From positions 1 through 34,574 of the IMG/VR virus record IMGVR_UViG_3300044647_001529: 34,574 bases of DNA. One strand, written 5' to 3'. Below are positions 792 to 29,677 of the stretch, one piece after another; position 1 is the stretch's first letter, and each line of letters begins with the position of its first letter. Source of the DNA: a virus (Duplodnaviria; Caudoviricetes). The notes beneath the pieces were generated by a model, which ran no database searches, had not been told where the DNA came from, and worked only from the letters and a program-made list of their open reading frames with translations. A program made the translations under genes and the position numbers.

Positions 792-1064
792 TCAAAGATA
801 GTATTGGGCAACCTTCTTGCCGTTCTCCGTCTGGATGTCCCGGCTTTGGATGGTCATCCCCGCCTTTTTCAAGTCATGGATGCGAGAGGCAAGCCGGAAG
901 ATTCCGTAAAGCCTCAACGCTTCCAATGCCGTGATCGGTTTCCCGCTTTGTAAATGCAACAAAACTTGTTGGCATTGTTTGGAACCGATGGGCTTATTTG
1001 GGTGGTGAGTTCCAGATGGCTCCACGAAGTCCATGGTTAGTTGGGATGCAAAATGGAAGCTCAT
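792..1064 (-). CDS. Winged-helix protein (HTH_39-like)
   Basis: HLQSGKPITALEALRLYGIFRLASRIHDLKKAG pattern typical of this phage HTH family; ATGA overlap with upstream gene. Confidence 0.8.
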   Translation of the reverse strand: MSFHFASQLTMDFVEPSGTHHPNKPIGSKQCQQVLLHLQSGKPITALEALRLYGIFRLASRIHDLKKAGMTIQSRDIQTENGKKVAQYYL

Positions 1065-1624
1065 ATTTTGCGGCTCTTTCTTTTGGTTGGGTAGTTATGC
1101 CGTGCCTGTTTGCTTGGCTCCCATCCCTGCTTTTTGGCGTGGCAGATTGAGGCATGGTCGCAACCCCAAGCCCTAGCGATAACCGTCATTGGGATTCCGG
1201 CCTCGTATTGAGCCTTCCACAATGCCCAACGCTTCTGGACGACTTCAACCTTGCGATTCTTGCACTTTCCAAATTTGCCCCTTAAAACCCTTAATTCGTG
1301 CGGAACGATGATTTGCGGCAAGTCTATCGGTTCGGCGGTCTTAGCCCTTTCTAGGCCCAAATGCGCTTCAATTTGGCCTATTCTGGAGCAAAGCGGTGCA
1401 AGGTAGGCTTTCACCGGGTCGGCTTCCTTGGCGTTCCGCATGATTTGAAGGCTCAATTCAATGCTATTGATCCGTTCCTCAAGCTCTTGGATTCTCTTTG
1501 GCAGAGTGACCGCCTTTTCAAATTCCATTGCTTGATCGGCCAGCGATTTGTATTCGGGTTGGATTTTGCGATATGGCACAAAACCACGATCCACAGTTCT
1601 TTCAAATGATTTAAGTAGGCTCAC
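1061..1624 (-). CDS. Coiled-coil protein with C-terminal DnaA domain IV-like HTH
   Basis: Start moved to the GTG at 1624 (GTGA overlap with initiator stop); C-terminal MTVIARAWGCDHASICHA resembles the DnaA-C IG..F.RDH.TV.HA pattern. Confidence 0.6.
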   Translation of the reverse strand: MSLLKSFERTVDRGFVPYRKIQPEYKSLADQAMEFEKAVTLPKRIQELEERINSIELSLQIMRNAKEADPVKAYLAPLCSRIGQIEAHLGLERAKTAEPIDLPQIIVPHELRVLRGKFGKCKNRKVEVVQKRWALWKAQYEAGIPMTVIARAWGCDHASICHAKKQGWEPSKQARHNYPTKRKSRKI

Positions 1625-2379
1625 GATGGGAACCCTGCTTTCTGCCAATCGTAGTATGAGGCAAAGCCCATCCGCCGATAGAGCGGAGCAGACTCGCACG
1701 ATGATTTTGGTTGCGGTTTTGGTTGCATTGTGTGGTTCCCTTTCTGGTTTGTGGTTTGGTTCCTTCTGAAACAATTCCTTGCGGCGGCTTGCCAGTCCTT
1801 AACAGGCGCACGGCCTCCGACCTTCCATCCGTTGCTTTCATAGTGGTCGAAGGCTCCTTGAACATCTTTGCCAATCCATCCGATGCTCTTTGCGTAATCC
1901 GACCATTGCGAAAGCGTGGGGCGCACTTGCGCCCTCTCTCTATTATTCTGGCCTCTAGCTTCTGTAGCTTCTAGCTTCTGCGGCGTTACATTGCCGTTAC
2001 AAGAGCGTTTCATTTGCGTTACAGGAGGCGTTACATCGGCGTTACGCCAACGCAAAATCCTTTCCCTATTAGACTTACGGCCACGCTCATCTTTCACCAT
2101 TCTGCGTGAAAATATGCAATCTTCCTCAACTGAATAGACCCCAGCTTGTGCCAACTCAACAAGCAAGCCGCTGGTCGTTTCAAGACTTTCTCCGAAGATT
2201 CTAGCTATATGCTCTGCCCCCATTGGGCTATCTCCAGCCATAAGATAGCCATGTCTTTTGGACTTTGCCATGAGGCAAATCATATCGACCCAAAGCCCTC
2301 TTGCCGCCGGGGAGCAACCCCGAAGGGCTTCATCCGAAAGCCAATCAGCCGGATAAAATTTAAGCCAAGGCAACTTCAC
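1621..2379 (-). CDS. Phage replication initiator (YdaU/DUF1376-like N-terminus)
   Basis: N-terminal WLKFYPADWLSD...CSPAARGLW.D.IC.M, mid IFSRRMVKD, C-terminal F.HYESNGWKVG..PVKDWQAAARN; contains iterons. Confidence 0.8.
   Translation of the reverse strand: MKLPWLKFYPADWLSDEALRGCSPAARGLWVDMICLMAKSKRHGYLMAGDSPMGAEHIARIFGESLETTSGLLVELAQAGVYSVEEDCIFSRRMVKDERGRKSNRERILRWRNADVTPPVTQMKRSCNGNVTPQKLEATEARGQNNRERAQVRPTLSQWSDYAKSIGWIGKDVQGAFDHYESNGWKVGGRAPVKDWQAAARNCFRRNQTTNQKGNHTMQPKPQPKSSCESAPLYRRMGFASYYDWQKAGFPS
1984..2046. repeat. Putative replication origin iterons (six CGTTACA-type 7-mers)
   Basis: Copies start at 1984, 1995, 2006 (CGTTTCA), 2017, 2029 and 2040 (CGTTACG); spacing 11-12 bp; three adjacent TAGCTTC repeats at about 1956-1980. 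Confidence 0.75.
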
Positions 2380-2949: not shown

Positions 2950-3136
2950 TTGGCATTCTACGAATGGCAGTTGCCACATCGTTCAGTAGGTCTTTGCGAA
3001 CTTGATCCTCCTCGGAGTCGGCCATCTGCTGAACCAACTCCGCACAGGCTTCTCGCTCTTTCTTCGCCACGGTATTTGCCAGCGAAGCCAAAGACCTATC
3101 AATTTGGGTTAGGGCAGATTCAGAAGGGGATGTCAT
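2936..3136 (-). CDS. Hypothetical protein
   Basis: KEREACAELV motif common in small phage proteins; tiles between neighbours. Confidence 0.6.
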   Translation of the reverse strand: MTSPSESALTQIDRSLASLANTVAKKEREACAELVQQMADSEEDQVRKDLLNDVATAIRRMPNAKY

Positions 3137-3890
3137 CTTTTTTATCCTCATCAATTACTGCCTTAATAACCGCCCGAAGCTGGACATCCTTTTTGTAGGG
3201 CTGTCCGTCTGGGGCGTTCTTCATTGGCTGTTCCATCAACCACATTAACCAACCGAAACCTTCGGATGATCTGGCGATCTGGCGCACGGTCTGGCCCTTG
3301 TATTTGCCAAACCCAACGACCATATCCTTAATCTCGGAGTCCTTGGTTTTCTTTTCCTCAACCAGCTTTGCCGTTATCTCTTTGATCTCTGCCTTCGAAG
3401 GCTCTTCGTATTTCTCGGTATTGAGTTGCTTGGCATCTTCAAAGCCACCGAAGGGAACTTCTTCCGCTGGGGTGGTTGAGAGGTTGCGGTCGATCAATAC
3501 AACGACATGGGCGAAGGCCGAGCGGCAAGCCCGACTGATCGCCCTTGTCTGGCACATTGCCCGCTGTGCATAGGTCGGACGCTTTGCCCACATATCCTCA
3601 TCGAAGCCAAGGAATCCCTCGGCGGTTGCGATTGTTTGGCCGTTGTCCATTCGGCGAACTTCGCCAATGCACTTCCAGCCTTCATCGGTGCGCTCGACAT
3701 CCCTTGCCGAAGCTACGCATCCATGGGCAACTGCGATGGATTGCCAGCCCTCTACCCGAACATAGTCACGATTGCCAATCCGTTGTGCCGTGGCCTTGAC
3801 GATTTCTCGGCAAGCCCCCGCAACATCAGTCGCCTGTCGGATATGTTGGGCAACTCCGTTGTTAATTGTTGCTAATTGTGTTTCGCTCAT
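3120..3890 (-). CDS. Putative ssDNA-annealing/recombination protein with C-terminal FGKYKG (DUF3820-like) domain and acidic DDIPF tail
   Basis: AMCQTRAISRACRSAF...TPAEEV; FGKYKGQTVRQI..GWLMWL; SSB-like DDIPF C-terminus; strong RBS AGAAAGGAACCACACA-ATG. Confidence 0.65.
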   Translation of the reverse strand: MSETQLATINNGVAQHIRQATDVAGACREIVKATAQRIGNRDYVRVEGWQSIAVAHGCVASARDVERTDEGWKCIGEVRRMDNGQTIATAEGFLGFDEDMWAKRPTYAQRAMCQTRAISRACRSAFAHVVVLIDRNLSTTPAEEVPFGGFEDAKQLNTEKYEEPSKAEIKEITAKLVEEKKTKDSEIKDMVVGFGKYKGQTVRQIARSSEGFGWLMWLMEQPMKNAPDGQPYKKDVQLRAVIKAVIDEDKKDDIPF

Positions 3891-3914
3891 TGTGTGGTTC
3901 CTTTCTTTTTTGGT

Positions 3915-4820: not shown

Positions 4821-5365
4821 AGAATCCTCCACTTGTGCCAATCGAGGGAGCAGTAAGAAGGATTGCTGACAAAGGGATAGCGGTCGTCCTTCTTCATCAC
4901 AAACCCTTCCCAAACCAGCCCGCCACGATTCTGGAAATTCATCTCCTCCCAAATCGCTTTAAGCTTTTTGTGATTAAGGCGGGGCATCCGTAGCAGGGCG
5001 TTTTGTTTTAGTTCAAAGGATGCGGGTTCGACCTCCTCAAACTCCTTGACCCTCTGAGCATAGGGCTTGGGGTTGTCGGGATCAAAAGCGTCAATAACGA
5101 TGATGGTTCCAATGCCCCTCTTCTCCCGCATGCCCATTATCTCACAGTCGATAAAGCGTGACTTAATCCCGGCAGTTGCCAAACGCTCCAACATCAGCGG
5201 AGCGTTGGATGCGATCTTGCCGTGTCGGTTGTAGGCCAAGCCTTCTTTTTGATCAAACCAACCTCTCCATCCATTCGCCTTTGGTTCGATTGCCCATCCC
5301 TCATAAGCCTCCGACCAAGGGGCATCAGCGGCTCCGACTGGTCTTGCGGGGTAATAGGATTTCAT
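4817..5365 (-). CDS. ATP-dependent ligase-like nucleotidyltransferase domain (no OB domain)
   Basis: Motif I EPKANGWR, III IDCEI, IIIa IDAFD, IV EGFVMK, V WHKWR at the extreme C-terminus. Confidence 0.75.
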   Translation of the reverse strand: MKSYYPARPVGAADAPWSEAYEGWAIEPKANGWRGWFDQKEGLAYNRHGKIASNAPLMLERLATAGIKSRFIDCEIMGMREKRGIGTIIVIDAFDPDNPKPYAQRVKEFEEVEPASFELKQNALLRMPRLNHKKLKAIWEEMNFQNRGGLVWEGFVMKKDDRYPFVSNPSYCSLDWHKWRIL

Positions 5366-5731: not shown

Positions 5732-5986
5732 TTAGACGGAAATTGCGTTAATAGCTTTGGCTAATTCAATCCGAACAATATTTTTTCCTTTGCCATAAGG
5801 GGGGAAAGGCATCGCCATAATTTTTGAGGGAATCCTTGCCCTAACAATTCCCTCTTCAACTGAAATAATTTTAAGGTTGCATTTAACCGTCTGAAAAAGA
5901 TGGTTAAATTGAAACCTAATATATTTGCCCACCAGATTGCCCGCTTGAACCGGGGCTTGTTCGGTTGTGGTTCCGTTGTTCATCAT
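5732..5986 (-). CDS. Hypothetical early protein (probably leaderless)
   Basis: 84 aa, AT-rich; ATG 6 nt after a -10-like box. Confidence 0.6.
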   Translation of the reverse strand: MMNNGTTTEQAPVQAGNLVGKYIRFQFNHLFQTVKCNLKIISVEEGIVRARIPSKIMAMPFPPYGKGKNIVRIELAKAINAISV

Positions 5987-5992
5987 GGAGCC

Positions 5993-6025
5993 AGCTTAAG
6001 GTATCTTAAACCTTTGTAAAGGTTT
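5993..6025 (-). promoter_or_regulatory. Putative early promoter with overlapping operator palindrome
   Basis: TTTACA-16 nt-TAAGCT-6 nt-ATG; perfect inverted repeat AAACCTTT-GT-AAAGGTTT (6008-6025) covers the -35. Confidence 0.55.
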
Positions 6026-19813: not shown

Positions 19814-19822
19814 TTATGTCAA
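19814..19822 (-). promoter_or_regulatory. TTGACATAA motif, 11 nt upstream of GTG 19802
   Basis: Exact 9-mer containing upstream TGA stop. Confidence 0.7.
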
Positions 19823-20505
19823 TCCATCCTTATAAGCCCCTCAAACAATGGAACATTGTCTGATTCAAACTCTCCTTTTTGCCCCCAAAATTTGCTTTCC
19901 TTTCCCCGCCTTACCGTAGAGGCCAAAATGATAGGAGATGAGTTAATCGCCCAGAATTGGTCTGCGTCCCTTATAGCCTTAGCCATTTGCTCAACGCTTG
20001 GAGCCGTATAGGTAGCAAGCCCCTCAATGCGGATATCTCTTGGACAAAGAACAATGATATTATCTTTACCCAATTCCTTTGCCGCCTCTTGAATGATTTT
20101 AAGTGGGCTATGCTGTGTGTTTTGAGAAATTCCAAAAGGGGCAATCAGATGATACTTTTCTGGAAGTCCTTCCGCTTTTTCTTCCCCAAGCCTGTCCAGA
20201 ATAATGTTTGTTTTGTCTGCGTCTTTGATCCTTGGGTCTGAATAAACAAAATCAGTCCAAGTCTTTCTGCTCTTTCTGTAATCAATATATTTATTAGGCC
20301 ATACCTCAAGATCAATAATATCTGCATTGAATGGGATTGCGCCCATTGGCTTCGCATAGGATACCAAATCAAACACGCCATGATATTGTTCGAGGCAATC
20401 AAATAAAACCTCATGCCCTTGGTCGGCTAGATATTTACAGGCGGGGAGGCATCGGAGAACATCCCCAAGCCTTTGTTGGTATTTTATAACTTTAGGTTGC
20501 ATCAT
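19819..20505 (-). CDS. Glycosyltransferase, GT-B/GT9-like
   Basis: RLGDVLRCLP, IAPFGIS, AINSSPIILAS motifs resemble heptosyltransferase family; start likely MMQPK. Confidence 0.6.
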   Translation of the reverse strand: MMQPKVIKYQQRLGDVLRCLPACKYLADQGHEVLFDCLEQYHGVFDLVSYAKPMGAIPFNADIIDLEVWPNKYIDYRKSRKTWTDFVYSDPRIKDADKTNIILDRLGEEKAEGLPEKYHLIAPFGISQNTQHSPLKIIQEAAKELGKDNIIVLCPRDIRIEGLATYTAPSVEQMAKAIRDADQFWAINSSPIILASTVRRGKESKFWGQKGEFESDNVPLFEGLIRMD

Positions 20506-21259
20506 CAACAACGCTCCTGTCTTGGACATGGGCAAAATATCTATTGATCCTAACAGGGCCATGGGTCTTTTGTAATTCCTCCCAAGATTTTAAAAGCCCT
20601 GCATAGCCATAAAAATCTTCTTTAAATTGAACTTGGCTTTTTGTCGAATAGGCAAAGTGGTCAAACACTAGCCCCATCTCCTCTGTGATTCCCCTTGGGA
20701 TTCTGATTGGCTGATGATTTAAAATGGGCGGCTCATGGCTGGTAAACTCAATGCCTTCCCCCCATTTCCATGCCCTATACCATTCGTAAGGATAAGCCCC
20801 AAGGCCAGAGCGTGAAACCACAACCTTTTTTCCTATATGATAGTGGCAAAAAAATTGTGCCGTGGTTCCGGGTGTTCGGTCAATCAAAAGCCTGTAAACA
20901 TCTTCCATCTGTTTTTCTGTCCAAAATTCATCAGCGTCTTGCTCCATCACTACACCGCAATCCACGCCCTCAAGAGCCTTGTTTACCATCTCGATCTTCC
21001 CATTGAAGGGCTTATTTTGAGAATATATTTTGACCTTATCATGCTTTAAATTTTGCAAATATTCGTGCGTTCCATCTGTGGATCGAAATTCTTTATGCCA
21101 TTTGTCTGGAACTTGCTTGCACCATCTAGTGCAGTTGATCGGGTTGCTTACTCCCTCCACAATCCTCCATTGCCAAGGGATAGTTAGCTTTTGATAAATT
21201 TCTAGCTTTTTGCTTATGAATGGCTCGCCATTTAAGACGATGGTGAAGATGGTCAACAT
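20492..21259 (-). CDS. Glycosyltransferase, GT-A/GT2-like
   Basis: TIVLNGEPFI, STDGTHEYL, QDADEFW (DxD). Confidence 0.75.
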   Translation of the reverse strand: MLTIFTIVLNGEPFISKKLEIYQKLTIPWQWRIVEGVSNPINCTRWCKQVPDKWHKEFRSTDGTHEYLQNLKHDKVKIYSQNKPFNGKIEMVNKALEGVDCGVVMEQDADEFWTEKQMEDVYRLLIDRTPGTTAQFFCHYHIGKKVVVSRSGLGAYPYEWYRAWKWGEGIEFTSHEPPILNHQPIRIPRGITEEMGLVFDHFAYSTKSQVQFKEDFYGYAGLLKSWEELQKTHGPVRINRYFAHVQDRSVVDDAT

Positions 21260-21798
21260 ACTTTTATCCAGCATTGGCCATAAAGCCCAAACCCATGCAA
21301 AAGCTCATTCACAGCTTTCATTACCTCTTGGAATGTTGAGTTATAATCATGCCCAGCCAATATCCCGCCAACCCTAATTTTGGGTAGCCAGTTTTGAATG
21401 TCTTGCTTTACTGCCTCATAAGAATGATCGGCATCTATAAAAACACCATCCAAGGAGCCATCTTCAAACAATTTTGATGCCTCGTTGGTTGTCATTCTGT
21501 GGGCATGATAAAGGCCATTGAGGGGAGCCATGTTTGAAATAAACTTTTCATACAAGCCATGCGTTATGCTTTCCGTATGCTCTTGTGATCCTTTCCAAGT
21601 GTCCACAATATGAACTTGGATGTCTTTGCTTTTGTTTTTTGCCTCGACAACTAGGAAGGCTGAACTTCTACCTTTCCAAGCCCCAAGCTCAACGATGGCT
21701 CCATTGTCCCTGCAATTTTGAACCATGGTCTTATAGACATAGGGGTCGGTAAACCAATTTTCTTCGAAGCATTCCCTTTCATAAATATGCTCGATCAT
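21253..21798 (-). CDS. Class I SAM-dependent methyltransferase (Methyltransf_24-like)
   Basis: VELGAWKGRS, VDTW, FIDADHSYEAVKQDI..W.PK...GGILAGHDY. Confidence 0.88.
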   Translation of the reverse strand: MIEHIYERECFEENWFTDPYVYKTMVQNCRDNGAIVELGAWKGRSSAFLVVEAKNKSKDIQVHIVDTWKGSQEHTESITHGLYEKFISNMAPLNGLYHAHRMTTNEASKLFEDGSLDGVFIDADHSYEAVKQDIQNWLPKIRVGGILAGHDYNSTFQEVMKAVNELLHGFGLYGQCWIKVC

Positions 21799-22394
21799 TT
21801 TCTAAAGATGGCACTTCCATTCCTCCAAGATTGCTCCTCCCATAAAAGATCATGCCCCGATGTTTTGAGCCATTGATAATTACCATAGTTCTTGATGTCG
21901 TTTGTATCGTCTAGGGCGATGATTCCGCCTTCTCTAACCTTGGGAAACCAAACCATAAAATCAGCACGACCAGAAAATGCCCCTCCATCTAATAACAGAA
22001 AGTCGGCCTCATCTTTAATAGTTGGATGCCCCCAAGTATAATTTTTAGAAACCCTGAAATCTTCTTTGTGCCATTCAATAATCTGCTCAAGGGGATATTG
22101 GTTTAAGTTGGTTCTTGTCGTTCTATAAAAATCTTCGACATCTTTTAGGATCATCCAAAGCATCGGATTACTTGAAAGCCAATTAACCGCAATTCCTCCC
22201 TGCCTTGAGTCTAGGTTATATTTATGCCTTGCTATTCTGTCTGGGTGAATCTCAAAACTAAATAGCTCCCTTGTTTTAATACATTGGGTGGAGCCATCCC
22301 CTGTTCCGCCACCTATCTCGACCCCAAGGGAAAGCCTCTCGCTGTATTTTGCTAGGGCTTGGCCGAATGGGTCTTGAAGGGTTATTTCTTGCAT
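21795..22394 (-). CDS. Putative SAM-dependent methyltransferase
   Basis: VEIGGGTGDGST, LLDGG, GGIIALDD. Confidence 0.7.
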   Translation of the reverse strand: MQEITLQDPFGQALAKYSERLSLGVEIGGGTGDGSTQCIKTRELFSFEIHPDRIARHKYNLDSRQGGIAVNWLSSNPMLWMILKDVEDFYRTTRTNLNQYPLEQIIEWHKEDFRVSKNYTWGHPTIKDEADFLLLDGGAFSGRADFMVWFPKVREGGIIALDDTNDIKNYGNYQWLKTSGHDLLWEEQSWRNGSAIFRK

Positions 22395-22642
22395 TTTGAT
22401 TTTACTGAATTTTTGATGGCCTCAACAATCACATAATTGATGACTGCCTCTTTGTCTTTGGCAAGCAATTCCATTCCAATTTCATAGAGCTCTTTCCCCG
22501 CCTTTTCATCATACTCAATATCAACAAGCACATATTTTGTTTTGTCTGGGCGGGATTTGCCAAACTTAATTATACCAAGACCCTTGGTATCCTCGCCTTT
22601 TTTGGCTGGCCTAATTCCAATTTGCGGCTTTTCTTTTCTCAT
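22382..22642 (-). CDS. Hypothetical protein
   Basis: Fills gap between GT and MTase; start uncertain. Confidence 0.5.
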   Translation of the reverse strand: MRKEKPQIGIRPAKKGEDTKGLGIIKFGKSRPDKTKYVLVDIEYDEKAGKELYEIGMELLAKDKEAVINYVIVEAIKNSVKSKCKK

Positions 22643-24272
22643 AAATGGCTTTGCCCTTCTCATAAAATTCCGGCTTGTTGTGATGTTTGATTAGATCATC
22701 TGGCTTTCCGCCTGTAAATAGAGGATTTTCATGCTTGAATTGAATATGTTTGCCTTCAATCACAACTCTATCACCATAAGCTCTTTCTGTAAATTCGTTA
22801 TCGGAATAAATACCATCGCTTTCCTGATAATCGGGGTGAAACATATATCCGCCCTGCCTTTCGAGCCTCTTTTGCGTCATAATCGCCATACAAAGGAGTT
22901 TGTCGGTGCGAAGCCCATCAGATATTGCCAAGACTTTCTCCTCGTTTGTAGCCCCAATAGCGGTCGAAATTAGGGTATCCCAATGCCTCGGCGGGCTCCA
23001 GTCGTCCGACATTTGGATCAGAATGTCCCCTTTGGCTTGTTTTGCTCCATAGTTCCAAGCGTTCACGATTCCGCCGGGATTGCATCGGATGGCTTGATGG
23101 GGAGTGTAGTCTTGGGGATCATCGTGATCGACAACAAAAATCCACTCAATCTCAAGAGGGTTTTTTGCCAGCATCAGCCACTGTTGCCTCCTTTGCCAAG
23201 CGATCTGCGGCCTTCCTTTGGTTGCGTGAATGATTGAGATTTTAGGGGCTGGCCTTGACTTCTTGATTTTTTCGGCTTCCTCTTTTTTCCCAACACAAAC
23301 AGAGGCAGTTTCATAAATGTCCAAAGATTGCCATTGATAAATAGCTTCGACTAAATTCCAGTAATGGGCAGTTGGCCTTGGTAAACTCATCGCCGCCCTT
23401 GCCGCTCCCCAGACCTTTGCCCATTGTCCCCTTGCGGAATATTCAACCGCCATCCAATAGTGGGCTTCCCTTCGATCCGGCTGAATGGCGATAGCTTCCC
23501 CAAGATATTTTAGCTTCTCCTCGCCTGTCGGGGCGCATCTTCCCATGTTGCAAAGAACATCGTATCGAAGCGTGTCCTCTAGCTCTGAAAATTGAATTGC
23601 CAACTTGCCATACTTCAAACAATCTGCCCAATTTTGGGTTAGAAAATGTTCTTGCTGGGTATAATAAAGTGCGTTAGGGGTTGGCTCTAGGGTATCTTTG
23701 AGGATGGCGAAGTTTCTGTCGGCGGAGGTCTTTTTATAGCCCTTTGGCTTGTGAACCCTTACAACTTTATCTATCCCAAAAATCCTTGAATTGTCCTCGG
23801 CTACAAGCATTTCGTGAACCCGATTCTTCCACCTGCATTTCCCCTTTAGGCTAACCATCTCTCTTAGTGGGATAAGCCCAGCGTTCTCCACCCAATATCT
23901 AAAAGCTATAAGTTGCGCTCCCCTTTCCTCTGCGGTGCTTATTGCCTCATCAATAACTCCCCCCACCCCCGGTTGCATCTCATCATCGGCATCCACCCAC
24001 ATTGCCCACTTCTCGGAACAAGCATCCAAGGCTGTATTCCTTGCGGCGGCAAAGTCATCTATATGAGGCCAATCCGTTCTTTGATTCTTATAATGAACAA
24101 CTCTAGCACCGTGAGCCAGTGCAACTTTTTCCTCCTCGGCTGTCGGATTGCTCCCCCCAGCCAAGCAAACAACAAACTCCTTCGCAATGGGCTTGAAGGA
24201 GCTAAGGCATCTTTCGAGATATTCGGCTTCATTGCCGCCACAAATAAGGTAAACAGACAGAGGATTTCTCAT
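22611..24272 (-). CDS. Two-domain GT2 glycosyltransferase with central TPR region
   Basis: YLERCLSS, DFAAARN, WVDADD, RVHE; TPR-like EAIAIQPDRREAHY; second GT domain KISIIHAT...QMSDD; start MRNPLS. Confidence 0.85.
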   Translation of the reverse strand: MRNPLSVYLICGGNEAEYLERCLSSFKPIAKEFVVCLAGGSNPTAEEEKVALAHGARVVHYKNQRTDWPHIDDFAAARNTALDACSEKWAMWVDADDEMQPGVGGVIDEAISTAEERGAQLIAFRYWVENAGLIPLREMVSLKGKCRWKNRVHEMLVAEDNSRIFGIDKVVRVHKPKGYKKTSADRNFAILKDTLEPTPNALYYTQQEHFLTQNWADCLKYGKLAIQFSELEDTLRYDVLCNMGRCAPTGEEKLKYLGEAIAIQPDRREAHYWMAVEYSARGQWAKVWGAARAAMSLPRPTAHYWNLVEAIYQWQSLDIYETASVCVGKKEEAEKIKKSRPAPKISIIHATKGRPQIAWQRRQQWLMLAKNPLEIEWIFVVDHDDPQDYTPHQAIRCNPGGIVNAWNYGAKQAKGDILIQMSDDWSPPRHWDTLISTAIGATNEEKVLAISDGLRTDKLLCMAIMTQKRLERQGGYMFHPDYQESDGIYSDNEFTERAYGDRVVIEGKHIQFKHENPLFTGGKPDDLIKHHNKPEFYEKGKAIYEKRKAANWN

Positions 24273-24292
24273 AAAGGATTTCAAGAGGGGAT

Positions 24293-24301
24293 TTATGTCA
24301 A
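24293..24301 (-). promoter_or_regulatory. TTGACATAA motif, 20 nt upstream of GT ATG, just after the terminator
   Basis: Exact 9-mer. Confidence 0.7.
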
Positions 24302-24306
24302 TTCAT

Positions 24307-24348
24307 AAAAGAAAGAGGGGCTAGAGTTTTTTAGGCTCTAGCCCCTCC
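24307..24348 (-). terminator. Rho-independent terminator after major capsid gene
   Basis: 12-bp perfect stem GAGGGGCTAGAG/CTCTAGCCCCTC, 9-nt loop, followed by TTTCTTTT. Confidence 0.9.
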
Positions 24349-24370
24349 AAGGAACCACACAATCTATTCT
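24307..24370 (-). ncRNA. Candidate 3'UTR-derived antisense RNA (seed ATTGTGTGGTTCCTT plus terminator)
   Basis: 24349-24363 is the exact inverted copy of 3889-3903 and a 14/15 copy (G:U wobble) of 1727-1741; function is inferred. Confidence 0.45.
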
Positions 24371-25336
24371 TTAGGCGAAGCTGGTGGTGATACGCACACC
24401 CGCATTCGCATCAATCAGCTTCTCAGCCGTGTTCATGCGAACCCGAAGCACATTGCTCCGGCGAGCCTCATCACGATAGCTCTCGGAGACGAAGCCTCCG
24501 GGGGCATCAACCGACCAGACCAAGGTGCGCCCAATTCCACCAGCGGTGAACTGGCCGCTCTGCACATTGGCAACGGTGATGTAGCTGTTGGAGAACACAA
24601 ACCCACCAGAGTAGGCTTTGTTCTTGTTGGCCGAGTTGATCGCCGCGCGACCAACGAGAACCTTCTGAACGCCAAGAGCCGCCGCGATTTCAGCCTCGGA
24701 GAGCAAGCGACCGCCAGTATCGGAGATAACCCCGAAGAACTGATTCTGGAGCTTGGTAGTCCGGCGGATACGCTCGAACACAGGGGCGGACATGATAACC
24801 GTATTGGCCTCATACCCTAACTTGTTGAGTTCGGTGCGGGCATTCGCCACATCGCCAGCCACATCAATATTGCCAAGGTTCGCATTGGTATATGCGGAGA
24901 TGGCGGATTGGTCGGAGGTGGTGAAGGGGGTAGTGCCAGCATTAACGATGTCGTTCACACGCTTCTCATGGCCGAGCTTGATTTGGCGGAGGAGGAAGCG
25001 GGCAGACGAGGCTTCGAGATCAAAAAAGCGATCAGCATCAGCGCGGAAGCTGTCATCAATTAGCTCTTCGAGGCCAAACTCGACCGTGTCGTAGGTATCA
25101 GTCCCAAAAGCACGGATGGCACGAGCGTAGCCCGAACCAGCGTCACGCGCCTTGGAATCGTTGTTGAGGAGGTCGGCCTGTGCCAACTGAACCTTGAGAT
25201 ACTGACCGCTTTTGGCGGGAACAGGCAGAAGGGGGAAAATTTCCGCACCGATCAGCCCGGTATCGCCATTGGGGGCTTCCACCAACGCTTGGTTGATGTC
25301 TGCCCGAATCGTTGTTCCACCAGAGATATAGCTCAT
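24371..25336 (-). CDS. Major capsid protein (lambda gpE-like, HK97 fold)
   Basis: 321 aa; IGAEIFPLLPV, ANTVIMSAPVF..I, VLVGRA; follows protease/decoration genes and precedes a strong terminator. Confidence 0.88.
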   Translation of the reverse strand: MSYISGGTTIRADINQALVEAPNGDTGLIGAEIFPLLPVPAKSGQYLKVQLAQADLLNNDSKARDAGSGYARAIRAFGTDTYDTVEFGLEELIDDSFRADADRFFDLEASSARFLLRQIKLGHEKRVNDIVNAGTTPFTTSDQSAISAYTNANLGNIDVAGDVANARTELNKLGYEANTVIMSAPVFERIRRTTKLQNQFFGVISDTGGRLLSEAEIAAALGVQKVLVGRAAINSANKNKAYSGGFVFSNSYITVANVQSGQFTAGGIGRTLVWSVDAPGGFVSESYRDEARRSNVLRVRMNTAEKLIDANAGVRITTSFA

Positions 25337-25367
25337 TTTCTTATTCTTTCTTTGTTTGGGTTAATCC

Positions 25368-25730
25368 TTAGAACATCGGAACGGCGATTTCGATGACAGC
25401 CGAGGTGGCGGTGGCCGCTTCGAGAGCGACACCAGCCGTAACCAGATTAGCCGCCAGCGTGGTCACTTGACCAGCCGCATCAAATTTCACAACATCACCG
25501 ACCGCCGCCGTGCCGGACACGGTTGCGAAGAAGGTGGGGTGGAACAGCTTCACGGTCACATAACCGCCAGCCGCTCCGTCATCAATGGTGGCTCCGATGG
25601 CCTTGGTCGACCCAGTCACAGCCACATCAATCCCGCCAGCCGTCACCGTGGAGGGCTGAACAAGGCGATAAGCCGAGATAGCGGACGATGTGCTGAACGT
25701 CCGAAAATTATTATCAATATTGGTGCTCAT
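25368..25730 (-). CDS. Capsid decoration/cement protein (DUF2190-like)
   Basis: AISAYRLV, AVGDVVKFDAAGQV, GVALEAAT....IEI. Confidence 0.75.
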   Translation of the reverse strand: MSTNIDNNFRTFSTSSAISAYRLVQPSTVTAGGIDVAVTGSTKAIGATIDDGAAGGYVTVKLFHPTFFATVSGTAAVGDVVKFDAAGQVTTLAANLVTAGVALEAATATSAVIEIAVPMF

Positions 25731-25746
25731 TCTATTTTATCCTTTG

Positions 25747-26148
25747 TTAGATTTTGCTGATGCCACGGCCAAGAGCCTCGGCATATTCTTTGGGGTTGGA
25801 GAGCATGACGGCTTTCATGGCCTTCAGCTTTGAAGTTCCGTAGTCGGCATGAGCCGCCACAAGAGCCTCAAAATTTTTCGGCTCATCCTTCTTGGGAGCC
25901 TCTTCGATCACCGGGGAAGCGGGGACAGGCTTGATGCCGAACTCGGTGAGAACCTTTTTCACAACCTCGGACATCTCCTCGGTCTTGGGCTCTTCCTTTT
26001 TCGCCATTTCCTCTTTCGGCTCAACCTCGACTTCAATCTTGGGAACCGAATCCTCTTTTTTCTCTTCTTTGGGAGACATGGCCTCTTCCAGTTTGGCGAG
26101 GCGCACCTTGATATCTTCCACTTCCTTACCGTAATCTTTGTTTTCCAT
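25747..26148 (-). CDS. Nested in-frame scaffold protein (133 aa)
   Basis: Internal RBS AAGGAGAGAACACA-ATG at codon 240, preceded by TTGACAAAA; analogous to lambda Nu3 within C. Confidence 0.65.
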   Translation of the reverse strand: MENKDYGKEVEDIKVRLAKLEEAMSPKEEKKEDSVPKIEVEVEPKEEMAKKEEPKTEEMSEVVKKVLTEFGIKPVPASPVIEEAPKKDEPKNFEALVAAHADYGTSKLKAMKAVMLSNPKEYAEALGRGISKI

Positions 26149-26865
26149 TGTGTTCTCTCCTTTTGTCAAACCCTCGCCCTCAACTTGGGTTTCGGGCAGA
26201 TCGGTGGGAATCGGCTTGCCGCCAACCATATATCCCATTTTGATTGTTTCGCCAGAGCATTTGGTCTGGGTTTCGGCAAATTTCTGCATAAACTTAACCA
26301 TTTCCTCGAAAAGTCCATTGGTTGCCGCAGGGCTTGAAACTAGGTCGGCGGAAGCGATGGATTGGGGTCGGATATAGTCCTTGCCGTTGATGGTCTCGGA
26401 CTCATTCACAAAAGCCAAGGAAACGCCGAACTGGTCGGGAGCTTCTGCGGCCATCTCTTTGATGAGGCCGTAGTGCGGGGAGTTGCGAAGGAGGCGGAGG
26501 TCGGCAACCAGCTTATCGCCTTCGATGCGGGGATTCCTTGCGAAGCCTACAACGGCATCCAATCCGCTTCCATGATTTAACTTTGTTTTAACGCCATTCT
26601 TTGCGGCCTTCATAATGCCAAGAGCCATCTCTAGGCTTTTCTTATCTACGAATAGGTCATGCCCCTTGGCCTCTCCCACCTCTAGGATCGAGACCCCGCC
26701 CAACTCTAGCTCTGCCATTTCCTCATCCTCATCACGATATGTGCGATAGGCAACCGCCGCCCTCTGTGTTTCATCGGGAAAATCGCTGATGGCTTGGTCG
26801 TTGCCCATAAAGCGTGAAACAAAGTCCTGTTCCGATTCGTCTCCTCTAGGAGTGGGTAGGGGCAT
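25747..26865 (-). CDS. Prohead protease-scaffold fusion with small N-terminal accessory domain
   Basis: GEAKGH, KLNH, LVADL, FGVSL, ADLVSSPAA protease-like motifs; acidic coiled C-terminus. Confidence 0.8.
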   Translation of the reverse strand: MPLPTPRGDESEQDFVSRFMGNDQAISDFPDETQRAAVAYRTYRDEDEEMAELELGGVSILEVGEAKGHDLFVDKKSLEMALGIMKAAKNGVKTKLNHGSGLDAVVGFARNPRIEGDKLVADLRLLRNSPHYGLIKEMAAEAPDQFGVSLAFVNESETINGKDYIRPQSIASADLVSSPAATNGLFEEMVKFMQKFAETQTKCSGETIKMGYMVGGKPIPTDLPETQVEGEGLTKGENTMENKDYGKEVEDIKVRLAKLEEAMSPKEEKKEDSVPKIEVEVEPKEEMAKKEEPKTEEMSEVVKKVLTEFGIKPVPASPVIEEAPKKDEPKNFEALVAAHADYGTSKLKAMKAVMLSNPKEYAEALGRGISKI

Positions 26866-26876
26866 AGAATCTTTTT

Positions 26877-26885
26877 TTATGTCAA
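26877..26885 (-). promoter_or_regulatory. TTGACATAA motif, 11 nt upstream of protease ATG
   Basis: Exact 9-mer containing the portal TGA stop. Confidence 0.7.
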
Positions 26886-29677
26886 AGAAGATCGCCGTCT
26901 GCCTTGCGGTAGGACTCTTTTACCTCTCCACCGCCAGCCATCTTTAGAAACTTGTTCACCCTAGCCATCGCCCAAGCGTTGCGTGAGTTGGGCTTACCCC
27001 CGGTAATCGTTGGCCTAAAGCTAGTGGAGAACGCACCCGCCCCCCTGCGAAACACTTTCTTTAATGCTCCAAGGGTGGGGGCTTTCCTTGTGGGGTGCTT
27101 GTCCTTGAACTCGGCAATCTTGTTCTTCAATGCTTCCTCGTTCTCGGCTGAAATCTCTATGTCGCCAGCTTTGCTTCTGGTGGATGCTGTTCCTTCTGGG
27201 TTCTCCTTGGAGCCTTTGATTCGCTCCTTGGGAGGTGCGGGAGTTTGTGCCGCAGACTTGGGGCCGGGTCGGGCTAGTTCCTTTGCCTTCTCATCAGTCA
27301 TTGGGCCACCCACAATCCAAGCGTCACAAGTTCTTTTGGCCGCACATTTAAAATCAAAAATCTCGCAGTAACCTAGATTGCCACCAATAGCGACTTCATT
27401 TGCATCCTCGCCGATGCCCTTCTTAATACACCCAAGAACTTTAGTCCTTTGGTCGAAGGCCGCACAATTACCGCAAAGCATCTTTTTGGCCGTGGCTACA
27501 TCGCCTTGGAACTCGTCTGCCTTGGCTTTCCAATAATCCTCATTAGGTTCATTAGGGTTGGCTGGGCCGTAGTTCGCATCATCAACCGCTGTCTTCCTAT
27601 TGGCTAGATTGGTTTTGATGTCTTGAGTTGCGATTGGGCAAGAGGCTGGTTCTGCTAGTTCTTTCTTGTCCCTTGCCTCCATCTGCCCAACCACTTTCCT
27701 TGCCCAAGCATAACCAGCATCACCACCCCATCCATTCCACGCTTGCCATCCCTTGCCCTGTTCGTCCCAAGTTGCACCTTTCTTGTCGACTTCATGGCGA
27801 TCAAAGAAGGCTTTCATTCTGCGGACGGTATCTGGGGAGAGGTTCACACCATTCATTAAATCCCTTGCTCTGGAGATGCCGACCGGGGTCATTCCCCTTT
27901 GGCTTGCTGGCTTGCCTTCCCTCACATCCAAAGCTCTCTTAGCCGCATCCCTAGCTCCTTGTGGTGGTGTGAAGTCTATTCCGTCATATTTTCCCAACTC
28001 AATCCCGCCCATCATCCCTTGAATCAGCATCTTAATAGATGCGGGGTCTAGCTTTGCTAATACCTCTTCAGTATCTTTTTTTTTAACTTCTAAATTTTCC
28101 GAAGAAGGCTCAATCGGTTCATCTGGTTCTGGCGCATTGTCTGGTTCCTCGCCATCGTCTTGTTCGCCCTCATCGGGTTTCGGTGCTGGTTGTGGCTTTG
28201 GTGCTGGGGCGGCTGGGGCTGGTTTTTCTGGCGGAACGACATCGCTGATTGTCTCTGGGGGAACGCCATATTCTTTAGCCAAGTCTTGAATTGCCTTGGC
28301 CTCGATTGCCCTTTGACGCATCGAAGCCTCCCAATCGGCTCCACGCTCTGCGTAGATGTCGGAGCCTGTGCGAAGTCCGCTCTTAAACTCTGCAATTGCA
28401 CTTGCCGATTCCCGCCCAAGGTCGATTGAAACATTCGCCCCAAAATTAAAAATGCCTCTAGTGGTTTTCCCACCCTCGTTTGTTTGAATCATTCCCCTTG
28501 CAACTGCGTCCGCAATCACAATGTTTTTAATTGGGCGAAGCACCTTGTCGTTCAAAAGATTCTGGTAACGCTTGAAGGTGCGCCCCGCTTGTTGCATTTC
28601 TAGGCGGGCAGTTGGGCCGGACATGGCGGAAGGATCAACCGCAAAGGAATATGGGATTCCAAGTCCAAGACAGATATTCCGCATTAGAACTTTGTGAAAT
28701 TCGATAAACGCTCCGCTAGGACGACTTGGGCCGTTGGGGAAAATAATATCCTCGCCCGGCTCTAGGTAGGAAATTTTGCCCGACTCAATCGTTTCTAGCT
28801 TGATCTGATTCCCACTGATGTCCTCTTCGGTTGAAAGTGTGGAAAGGTCAGCGGCATTGTTGTTGTTGCGCTTTACGATCCCGCTCTGGGAGCTTGCAAC
28901 CTTGGCCGCCATCTTTTCAAAGCTGGTAAGTTCGTGAATGTCGGTTGCGTCATTGATAGCTGTGTGAAAGGCCGAAACGCCACGATATTGGTCGATGCGT
29001 AGCGGGTCGAAAAGGTGGAAGGCTTGGCTTGAGGGAATGGTGATTTGGTAGCTGTAAAAATCCCCGATGCTTCGGTTGTAAATATCGTAAGCCGTGGGTG
29101 CACCTGTGTTGCGATCGATATGGATTCCGCCGATAAGCTCTAGGCTTGTATAGACTTTGAATGGGTCGCCCAATCTGTCGGCCTCAATGCCTTGGATTTT
29201 TAGATCGCCATTGGAATCACGAACCAAAACAAAAAGGAAGTCACCATCCCGCAACATGGACATAACCGCCACTTGCATAAGGGTTGATCCTGTGTGCCTT
29301 GTGGAGATATCGCACTTGTCCCACCATTCGTTCCAATAGGCTTCGACATCGGTGTTTACTTGGGGATTCTGTGTTCTTGATTGGTAGCTGATTGTTCCCG
29401 CAACATGACCTGCAAACTTCAAAAGGATAGAGCGAACCAAGCCTACATTTTCGGCCAAGTCCCTTGCCCGCTTCATCAACTCTACACGATCATAGTTGGA
29501 GCGATAATCTTCAGCCCCAGAAAGTGAGCTTGGCCCCTTGCGTTCCCGGCTGTATTTTACGGCATCATATTCAAAGTTCTTGAGCTTCTGGCGGGCAAGA
29601 AGGCGATCCACCGCTCCCTGCGGATTGACGAAGGCAATAGCCTTGTCGATCAGATTCAATTCGGCCTTTTTCTTCAT
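26882..29677 (-). CDS. Lambda-family portal protein with about 450-aa C-terminal multi-domain extension
   Basis: RARDLAEN, LRDGD, IEADRL, HLFDPLRIDQYRGVS, YLEPGE, GLGIPY in the first ~480 aa; then Pro/acidic linker and three modules. Confidence 0.9.
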   Translation of the reverse strand: MKKKAELNLIDKAIAFVNPQGAVDRLLARQKLKNFEYDAVKYSRERKGPSSLSGAEDYRSNYDRVELMKRARDLAENVGLVRSILLKFAGHVAGTISYQSRTQNPQVNTDVEAYWNEWWDKCDISTRHTGSTLMQVAVMSMLRDGDFLFVLVRDSNGDLKIQGIEADRLGDPFKVYTSLELIGGIHIDRNTGAPTAYDIYNRSIGDFYSYQITIPSSQAFHLFDPLRIDQYRGVSAFHTAINDATDIHELTSFEKMAAKVASSQSGIVKRNNNNAADLSTLSTEEDISGNQIKLETIESGKISYLEPGEDIIFPNGPSRPSGAFIEFHKVLMRNICLGLGIPYSFAVDPSAMSGPTARLEMQQAGRTFKRYQNLLNDKVLRPIKNIVIADAVARGMIQTNEGGKTTRGIFNFGANVSIDLGRESASAIAEFKSGLRTGSDIYAERGADWEASMRQRAIEAKAIQDLAKEYGVPPETISDVVPPEKPAPAAPAPKPQPAPKPDEGEQDDGEEPDNAPEPDEPIEPSSENLEVKKKDTEEVLAKLDPASIKMLIQGMMGGIELGKYDGIDFTPPQGARDAAKRALDVREGKPASQRGMTPVGISRARDLMNGVNLSPDTVRRMKAFFDRHEVDKKGATWDEQGKGWQAWNGWGGDAGYAWARKVVGQMEARDKKELAEPASCPIATQDIKTNLANRKTAVDDANYGPANPNEPNEDYWKAKADEFQGDVATAKKMLCGNCAAFDQRTKVLGCIKKGIGEDANEVAIGGNLGYCEIFDFKCAAKRTCDAWIVGGPMTDEKAKELARPGPKSAAQTPAPPKERIKGSKENPEGTASTRSKAGDIEISAENEEALKNKIAEFKDKHPTRKAPTLGALKKVFRRGAGAFSTSFRPTITGGKPNSRNAWAMARVNKFLKMAGGGEVKESYRKADGDLL

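Follow-up and report, generated by a model that had tools for sequence, protein, structure and literature searches.

Several described RNAs come close to the element considered here, a U/G-rich antisense seed of 15 nucleotides (nt) followed by an intrinsic terminator, which lies in the 3' untranslated region (UTR) of the major capsid mRNA in the virus record IMGVR_UViG_3300044647_001529 (Duplodnaviria; Caudoviricetes; the whole stretch of 34,574 nt that was analysed is hereafter called the window). For NarS, the excerpt available presents processing, Hfq dependence and repression as shown (PMC7038943). The c4 RNA of P1/P7, according to a partial account, is structured, acts on antirepressor mRNA in an immunity system and likely carries its pairing sequences in loops (PMC12197685), and excerpts of two further reports describe ncRNA1 and ncRNA2 of PAK_P3 and UTR-derived candidates of phiKZ as abundant processed UTR RNAs of lytic phages (PMC10914365; PMC8545117). 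Lambda PreS acts on host genes, in the excerpt available. In icaR of Staphylococcus aureus, a stretch of the 3'UTR is reportedly complementary to the initiation region of the mRNA's own 5'UTR. For the post-capsid element, we consider it probable that an antisense RNA derived from the capsid 3'UTR represses the translation of the phage's early genes.

The likeness to icaR is that a 3'UTR is complementary to a translation initiation region; self-pairing between the two UTRs of one mRNA was ruled out, since the capsid leader pairs poorly and the best sites lie on other genes. Autoregulation of the capsid was rejected as well: across 40 genomes, pairing with its own leader gives -5.7 to -13.0 kcal/mol, as against about -23 at the main targets. 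GcvB, whose seed is G/U-rich, is a stand-alone, conserved host small RNA (sRNA) with a fixed seed, whereas the post-capsid seed is an mRNA tail that varies and follows a leader motif particular to each lineage. What the two share, as far as the GcvB excerpt goes, is a seed directed at ACA-rich translation enhancers close to the starts of several mRNAs (PMC3879156). With NarS, as described in part, the element shares a single-stranded seed and an intrinsic terminator at the 3' end of an mRNA, a duplex of about 14-15 bp over the Shine-Dalgarno (SD) region of another mRNA, joint conservation of seed and target and an RN^WUU-like 5' edge, but it is encoded behind a phage capsid gene, is apparently aimed at the phage's own early genes and has no sequence relation to NarS (PMC7038943).

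Like c4 in the account available, the element is a phage RNA of phage-specific (heteroimmune) sequence that, here by prediction, pairs around a phage ribosome-binding site (RBS) and blocks translation; unlike c4, it has a seed that is linear and belongs to the tail of a late mRNA, facing several replication/recombination starts, and it has no Rfam C4 match (PMC12197685). In Rfam 15, no family, the C4 models included, reached its gathering score in the window, and at E up to 10 the segment 24200-24500 gave 5 weak matches, none of them a C4 model, the best being BjrC68 with 16.9 bits against a cut-off of 39. Membership in the c4 family was rejected, the best targets being the annealing and initiator-internal starts described below, with no antirepressor among the proteins scanned. 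The PAK_P3 ncRNAs are likewise 3'UTR-derived and rise late in infection, but the excerpts give them and the phiKZ candidates without targets or mechanism, and not as capsid 3'UTRs with covarying targets (PMC10914365; PMC8545117). Among the top literature matches listed, with supplementary candidate lists outside the search, no capsid-3'UTR antisense RNA against early genes was found. Comparative-genomics work may have described phage anti-SD sRNA candidates; our literature searches did not retrieve it.

The window is a near-complete phage genome with a terminal overlap, in which 59 of the 59 called genes lie on the minus strand. The capsid stop is followed by 7 nt, the seed (24363-24349), a 13-bp hairpin with a 9-nt loop and a U-tract (coordinates in Table 1). 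The seed is unpaired in folding, with an opening energy of 0.5-1.2 kcal/mol, and the hairpin is the strongest of the three coding-strand terminator candidates in the window. An initial annotation of this DNA had recognised here the seed-plus-terminator layout of bacterial 3'UTR-derived sRNAs, and this stands: the element sits in an mRNA 3'UTR, shares the intrinsic terminator of that mRNA, and exposes a conserved single-stranded seed that is complementary to conserved sites elsewhere, this last feature being weak within clade B and clade A4 (see below). The coordinates given for the seed and its 15/15 complement in the leader of the annealing gene (target 1) were confirmed, as was the pairing with an internal AUG of the initiator-like gene, where one A>G change makes a G:U pair (target 2). 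The 9-nt match placed in the first early gene is also present, in codons 5-7, and is weak (target 3).

The seed-complement pattern, with up to 3 mismatches, matches 5 times in the window against 1.17 expected, and none of 100 shuffles reached 5. When opening costs are included, targets 1 and 2 have net duplex energies of -22.5 and -22.0 kcal/mol and are the best two of 71 start regions, some 9 kcal/mol ahead of the remaining 69, of which the first reaches -13.7; both lie on start codons, as the annotation had stated. Its caution that a lone inverted 15-mer is not rare was justified. With 2 exact inverted 15-mers in the genome, a single match of this kind means little, and the signal is carried by position and not by length. 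The other exact pair (1161-1175 and 5061-5075) has both copies inside coding regions and is likely due to chance.

A preference for early starts is seen in 41 near-complete genomes of clades A and B (the window, G001-G010 and G023-G052). Helices that reach 10 bp and contain no more than one G:U were found at 51 early starts and 2 late starts, any in-frame ATG of a called gene being counted as a start because the gene caller misplaces some of them, while shuffled seeds gave 6.5+-2.6 early (maximum 17 in 300 shuffles) and 11.2+-3.6 late. Seeds of the other clade gave 7.5 early helices. An effect of anti-SD complementarity alone was rejected, since seeds shuffled with the last 5 nt, the anti-SD end, held fixed gave 7.3 against the 51 observed, and since clade C, considered below, lacks an SD complement. 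With one genome per distinct seed (14 in all), 23 early helices stood against 1 late, compared with 2.5 and 4.1 in shuffles. The signal is furthermore confined to one strand: in the early region of 40 genomes, leaving out G029 with its 7 minus-strand gene calls, the coding strand had 119 matches versus 41 for shuffled seeds and the template strand 12 versus 12.6. For seeds of types A2 and A4, a genome-wide duplex scan without constraints gave noisy results.

Scans of viral and metagenome data yielded 364 loci, which were reduced to 195 distinct capsid-end contexts and 106 UTR variants. The U/G-seed pattern with a terminator behind the capsid stop was present in 183 of the 195 contexts and 97 of the 106 variants; by eye, 7 of the remaining variants have a shorter seed and 2 have none. 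The seed sequence differs by lineage, and its reverse complement resembles a start region. Seed type A is retained despite a swapped capsid and upstream gene (64-69% identity) in G009, G010 and G050 (loci L065, L068 and L291), and in G009 and G010 nearly all markers apart from the swapped capsid region are close to the window. On the variable-length UTRs, RNAalifold recovered only 5 stem pairs, 3 of them with two-sided changes. Towards the 3' end of the capsid gene, third codon positions show no extra conservation, and no conserved TTGAC suggesting an internal promoter was found in the last 400 nt of the gene, where 26 of 41 genomes have none at all. The possibility that the seed is the start of an opposite-strand open reading frame was rejected, as the window copy has no ATG. 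Cultured phages match at only about 25%, and the host look-up returned a single 1-kb fragment of a Planctomycetales metagenome-assembled genome at 40%.

Seeds and leaders change together, as the annotation had anticipated for relatives, and this covariation is seen from one to another of three lineages and inside two of them. A genome's own seed outperforms foreign seeds in pairing, with p 5e-5 both for the initiator-internal site, on 27 unique pairs, and for the annealing gene, on 31 pairs; within clade A the corresponding values are 0.010 and 0.003. The capsid and the initiator N-terminus are mosaic, and in 34 of 35 genomes the class of the internal RBS nonetheless corresponds to the clade of the seed, G031 being the exception. 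G003 and G050, for instance, have a common seed and internal RBS, with capsids 96 and 69% identical to that of the window and initiator N-termini 39 and 78% identical. Counts of perfect 10-mers per genome form a largely diagonal lineage matrix: A1 seeds score 1.9 on their own genomes versus at most 0.1 elsewhere, B seeds 1.0 versus 0-0.6, and C1 seeds 3.6 versus no more than 0.3 on genomes of A, B and D, while A4 and C2 seeds score 0 on their own genomes. These counts were made with a cut-off of 30 codons; at 50 codons, which drops the 35-aa internal start, A/B specificity was weaker.

The arrangement recurs in a distant lineage, clade C, whose capsids are about 46% identical and in which a homolog of the window's annealing gene was found in 0 of 10 records. 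The distant capsids were scanned with one protein and a narrower alignment, an alignment of 27 capsids being too diverse. Among 22 clade C loci, all 20 that reach far enough have a U/G seed and a hairpin after the capsid gene. The common seed is a different one, without anti-SD, and its complement, ACACAGAACA, is found in 2-8 genes per genome, either immediately ahead of the ATG or within codons 2-4. Counts on 8 of the 10 genomes, two being omitted as seed duplicates, gave 27 start sites versus 3.7+-2.2 with shuffled seeds and 6.8 with A/B seeds; on the template strand there was 1, versus 1.0 shuffled. The targets include an ERF-family annealing gene, unrelated to the annealing gene of the window, and a block of small genes between terL and portal, with a DUF932 gene among them (24276-27326 in G053, and equivalents), most of which have the seed complement at their starts and which may be expressed early. 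Seed and ERF leader co-change between C subgroups: in G058 and G059, which have an altered seed, the best partner of each ERF leader is the seed of the same genome, at -27.6 and -19.1 kcal/mol versus -13.9 and -9.9 with the common type. The anti-SD complementarity that the annotation had noted is present at target 1 of the window, which spans the SD-to-AUG region, and does not carry over to clade C, where the seed is complementary to SD-less leaders and first codons. Clade D (capsids about 47% identical to A/B) keeps the hairpin and mostly lacks the seed, and serves as a negative control, with start-site counts inside the shuffle range in 7 of 8 genomes; in the exception, G070 (7 vs 1.8), the 24-nt window used ran into the terminator stem.

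Table 1. Features of the capsid 3'UTR element, its predicted targets and the surrounding early genes
Feature	Position	Strand	Basis or remark
Major capsid gene, mRNA bears the element	24371..25336	-	phrog_1005, E 9e-32
U/G-rich single-stranded antisense seed, 15 nt	24349..24363	-	position kept in relatives
Intrinsic terminator: 13-bp hairpin (24348-24314) and U-tract	24307..24348	-	both-sided stem changes in relatives
Target 1: SD-to-AUG region of gene 3120-3890	3889..3903	-	complement 15/15
Target 2: internal in-frame RBS/AUG (1728) of initiator-like gene	1727..1741	-	one A>G, G:U in RNA
Target 3 (weak): codons 5-7 of first early gene	5966..5974	-	9-mer, net -12.2 kcal/mol
ssDNA-annealing protein, Rad52/Sak-type (lead)	3120..3890	-	VIA Z 7.0 to RAD52, atlas 0.87-0.88
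Replication initiator-like gene	1621..2379	-	PF09681, E 0.0012, under curated cut-off
Two genes coupled behind internal start	792..1624	-	start/stop overlaps in sequence
Sigma70-like early promoter	5987..6020	-	-35 at 6020-6015, -10 at 5998-5993, ends 6 nt before ATG

The genes behind these sites suggest what a block of initiation would do. The product of 3120-3890 is probably an annealing protein of the Rad52/Sak type, as a lead only: its RAD52 match in VIA is tied with uS5/dsRBD folds, a match to ExoX-like_C is weak, and neither Foldseek at E 0.001 nor a sequence search of the PDB gave a match. The AUG at 1728 has its own SD, is in frame within the initiator-like gene and encodes its last 35 aa. 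This internal start was found in 35 of 41 genomes, the others being truncated or without this C-terminus, and the peptide is a conserved initiator C-terminus of 32-36 aa (S-C-E-S-A/P-P-x-Y...GF...W...AG-P) with no match in Pfam or PHROG. Its stop overlaps the start of 1061-1624, a lead for a DnaA_C-like helix-turn-helix (HTH) protein (0.85), next to which lies a winged-HTH gene (792-1064, PF14090), so that blocking AUG 1728 would probably hit mainly these coupled downstream genes and less the initiator itself. The annotation, which had named the initiator as a target, was thus correct about the internal AUG and probably not about the protein controlled. Its statement that the genome has no recognisable repressor applies to the CI, antirepressor and integrase families, none of which was found among the proteins scanned; the winged-HTH protein and the DnaA_C-like lead are present, and protein regulators may act as well. 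The first early gene is highly variable, with opening codons rich in Thr/Asn. Its promoter layout recurs in 24 of 41 genomes by pattern search, and its mRNA is likely leaderless, which would explain why the 9-nt match sits in codons 5-7. In the 24 genomes where the gene was found, own seeds average -11.7 versus -7.9 for shuffled ones, and the site is among the top 5 first-codon regions in 12 of the 24.

We propose that late transcription would raise the level of the capsid mRNA tail, which would then act in trans, either as a fragment of about 57-64 nt (the seed with its stabilising hairpin) released by endonucleolytic decay, possibly at an RN^WUU-like site, or, in an alternative form, as the free end of the intact capsid mRNA. 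A candidate RNase E-like site, AG^AUU, lies at the 5' edge of the seed. Pairing over the SD-AUG region, or over the first codons of leaderless mRNAs, would exclude 30S binding. In the window, this would lower the annealing protein and, by way of coupled translation from the internal AUG, the HTH-type proteins encoded further downstream, amounting to a delayed negative feedback of the late programme onto the early one. Late accumulation, pairing in trans and the initiation block are steps that we infer from the sequence. Beyond this, the comparisons allow a wider and more tentative reading, possible in our view but with doubt slightly prevailing: an early-to-late switch made of RNA only, in which the capsid tail would silence a class of early genes marked by a lineage-specific leader code, both having been rewritten together several times and kept aimed at recombination/replication genes even after their replacement by unrelated ones.

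A number of findings weigh against repression by the capsid tail. The element is dispensable in related phages, since the close variants L021/L022 and L448 and most clade D loci are seedless. No start-site helix of at least 10 bp was found in 11 of the 41 A/B genomes, namely 4 of clade A4 and 7 of clade B (some of them incomplete), and the matches of clade A4, which lie at 2-4 early starts, are only 9 bp long or bulged. Covariation is not significant within clade B, the largest clade (p 0.22 and 0.14), the permutation p-values ignore kinship, the split between A and B follows genome backbone markers and so amounts to about one event, and only some 5-6 paired seed/leader changes could be identified by inspection. 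When G:U pairs are allowed, B seeds lose their specificity (2.3 on their own versus 1.1-2.0 on foreign genomes), and the spectrum of changes comprises 26 of G:U type, 23 transversions and 10 other transitions. The third target is weak and shows little lineage specificity. Only 20 of 30 UTR variants contain RN^WUU, the consensus being taken from the work on NarS (PMC7038943). In the loci concerned, close capsid relatives, the terminator is present and the seed absent at L021:3961, L022:4208 and L448:2461; the sequences of these loci do not include the early region.

The same pairing could operate in cis, with a transcript of about 16 kb, from the early promoter to the capsid terminator, folding its 3' tail onto upstream starts in the manner of icaR. 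Nearly all called genes share one strand and there are only 3 coding-strand terminator candidates, the strongest behind the capsid, which makes read-through from the early genes into the capsid plausible on a circular map; such folding would, however, have to span about 12-16 kb of translated, decaying mRNA and serve 2-8 targets per genome with a single tail, and TTGACA-type elements ahead of late genes suggest separate late transcripts, so we regard it as unlikely. We hold equally unlikely a GcvB-like shut-off in which host mRNAs with C/A-rich translation enhancers are the main target of the seed and early phage leaders match it because they share a strong-leader idiom of the host. GcvB is known to silence translation enhancers made of ACA motifs, according to an excerpt (PMC3879156), and B seeds are of low complexity and promiscuous once G:U is allowed, but the leader idiom shifts finely with the seed among close phages (A1/A2/A3 and the C subgroups), and late starts are spared, with 2 helices against a shuffle mean of 11.2.

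Somewhat less probable again is a by-product without RNA function, arising from composition bias or from short inverted repeats that are copied onto each other again and again by microhomology. The phages do encode annealing proteins, C/A-rich leaders are simple sequence, independent events are few and many B genomes match loosely; yet composition-matched shuffles yield about one-eighth of the signal, no second seed-plus-terminator unit was seen in 5 genomes scanned, and clade C shows the arrangement again, with target genes that are unrelated. The direction could also be reversed, early leaders binding the capsid tail, altering its stability or termination and so restraining early capsid output, since pairing is symmetric and directly beside the terminator stem. 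This is very unlikely in our view, because the sites are held exactly on the starts of several genes, a precision for which a decoy would have no use, and the helix does not invade the stem. Least probable of all is an orientation-independent DNA-binding site for one of the HTH-type proteins encoded in the genome, an outcome that the annotation had listed as refuting its proposal. The start-site copies are all sense and only the post-capsid copy is antisense, several copies lie within codons, and template counts equal those of shuffles both in A/B and at clade C starts, which makes the signal strand-specific. Repression in trans by the capsid tail is the explanation that we prefer.

How small phages without a polymerase or sigma factor of their own turn down their early genes is largely an open question. 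If true, the off-switch described here would tie the shut-off of recombination and replication directly to late output at a cost of about 20 nucleotides, and an RNA-only switch of this kind could be a common, undescribed layer of lytic timing in environmental phages. The covarying natural seed/leader pairs are, in addition, ready-made compensatory mutants and a small set of distinct antisense/RBS pairs.

Some further observations concern the neighbourhood of the element and late expression. A cluster of glycosyltransferase and methyltransferase genes lies immediately downstream of the capsid (19819-24284). The coding strand of the window has 9 copies of TTGACA, often with TAA behind them (29931, 26885, 26169, 24301, 19822, 15809, 11015, 8529 and 773, minus strand), and the template strand has 0; across the 41 genomes the counts are 431 and 28. 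Most copies stand 13-16 nt ahead of late starts (170 cases), and the motif is also found directly past the capsid terminator; as this spacing is too near for a -35 box, the motif probably serves as an element of late promoters or leaders. At 26148 (minus), within a protease/scaffold-like gene of 372 aa, there is a probable internal start with a strong SD and a bulged partial seed complement (net -12.3 kcal/mol), whose product is likely a scaffold protein.
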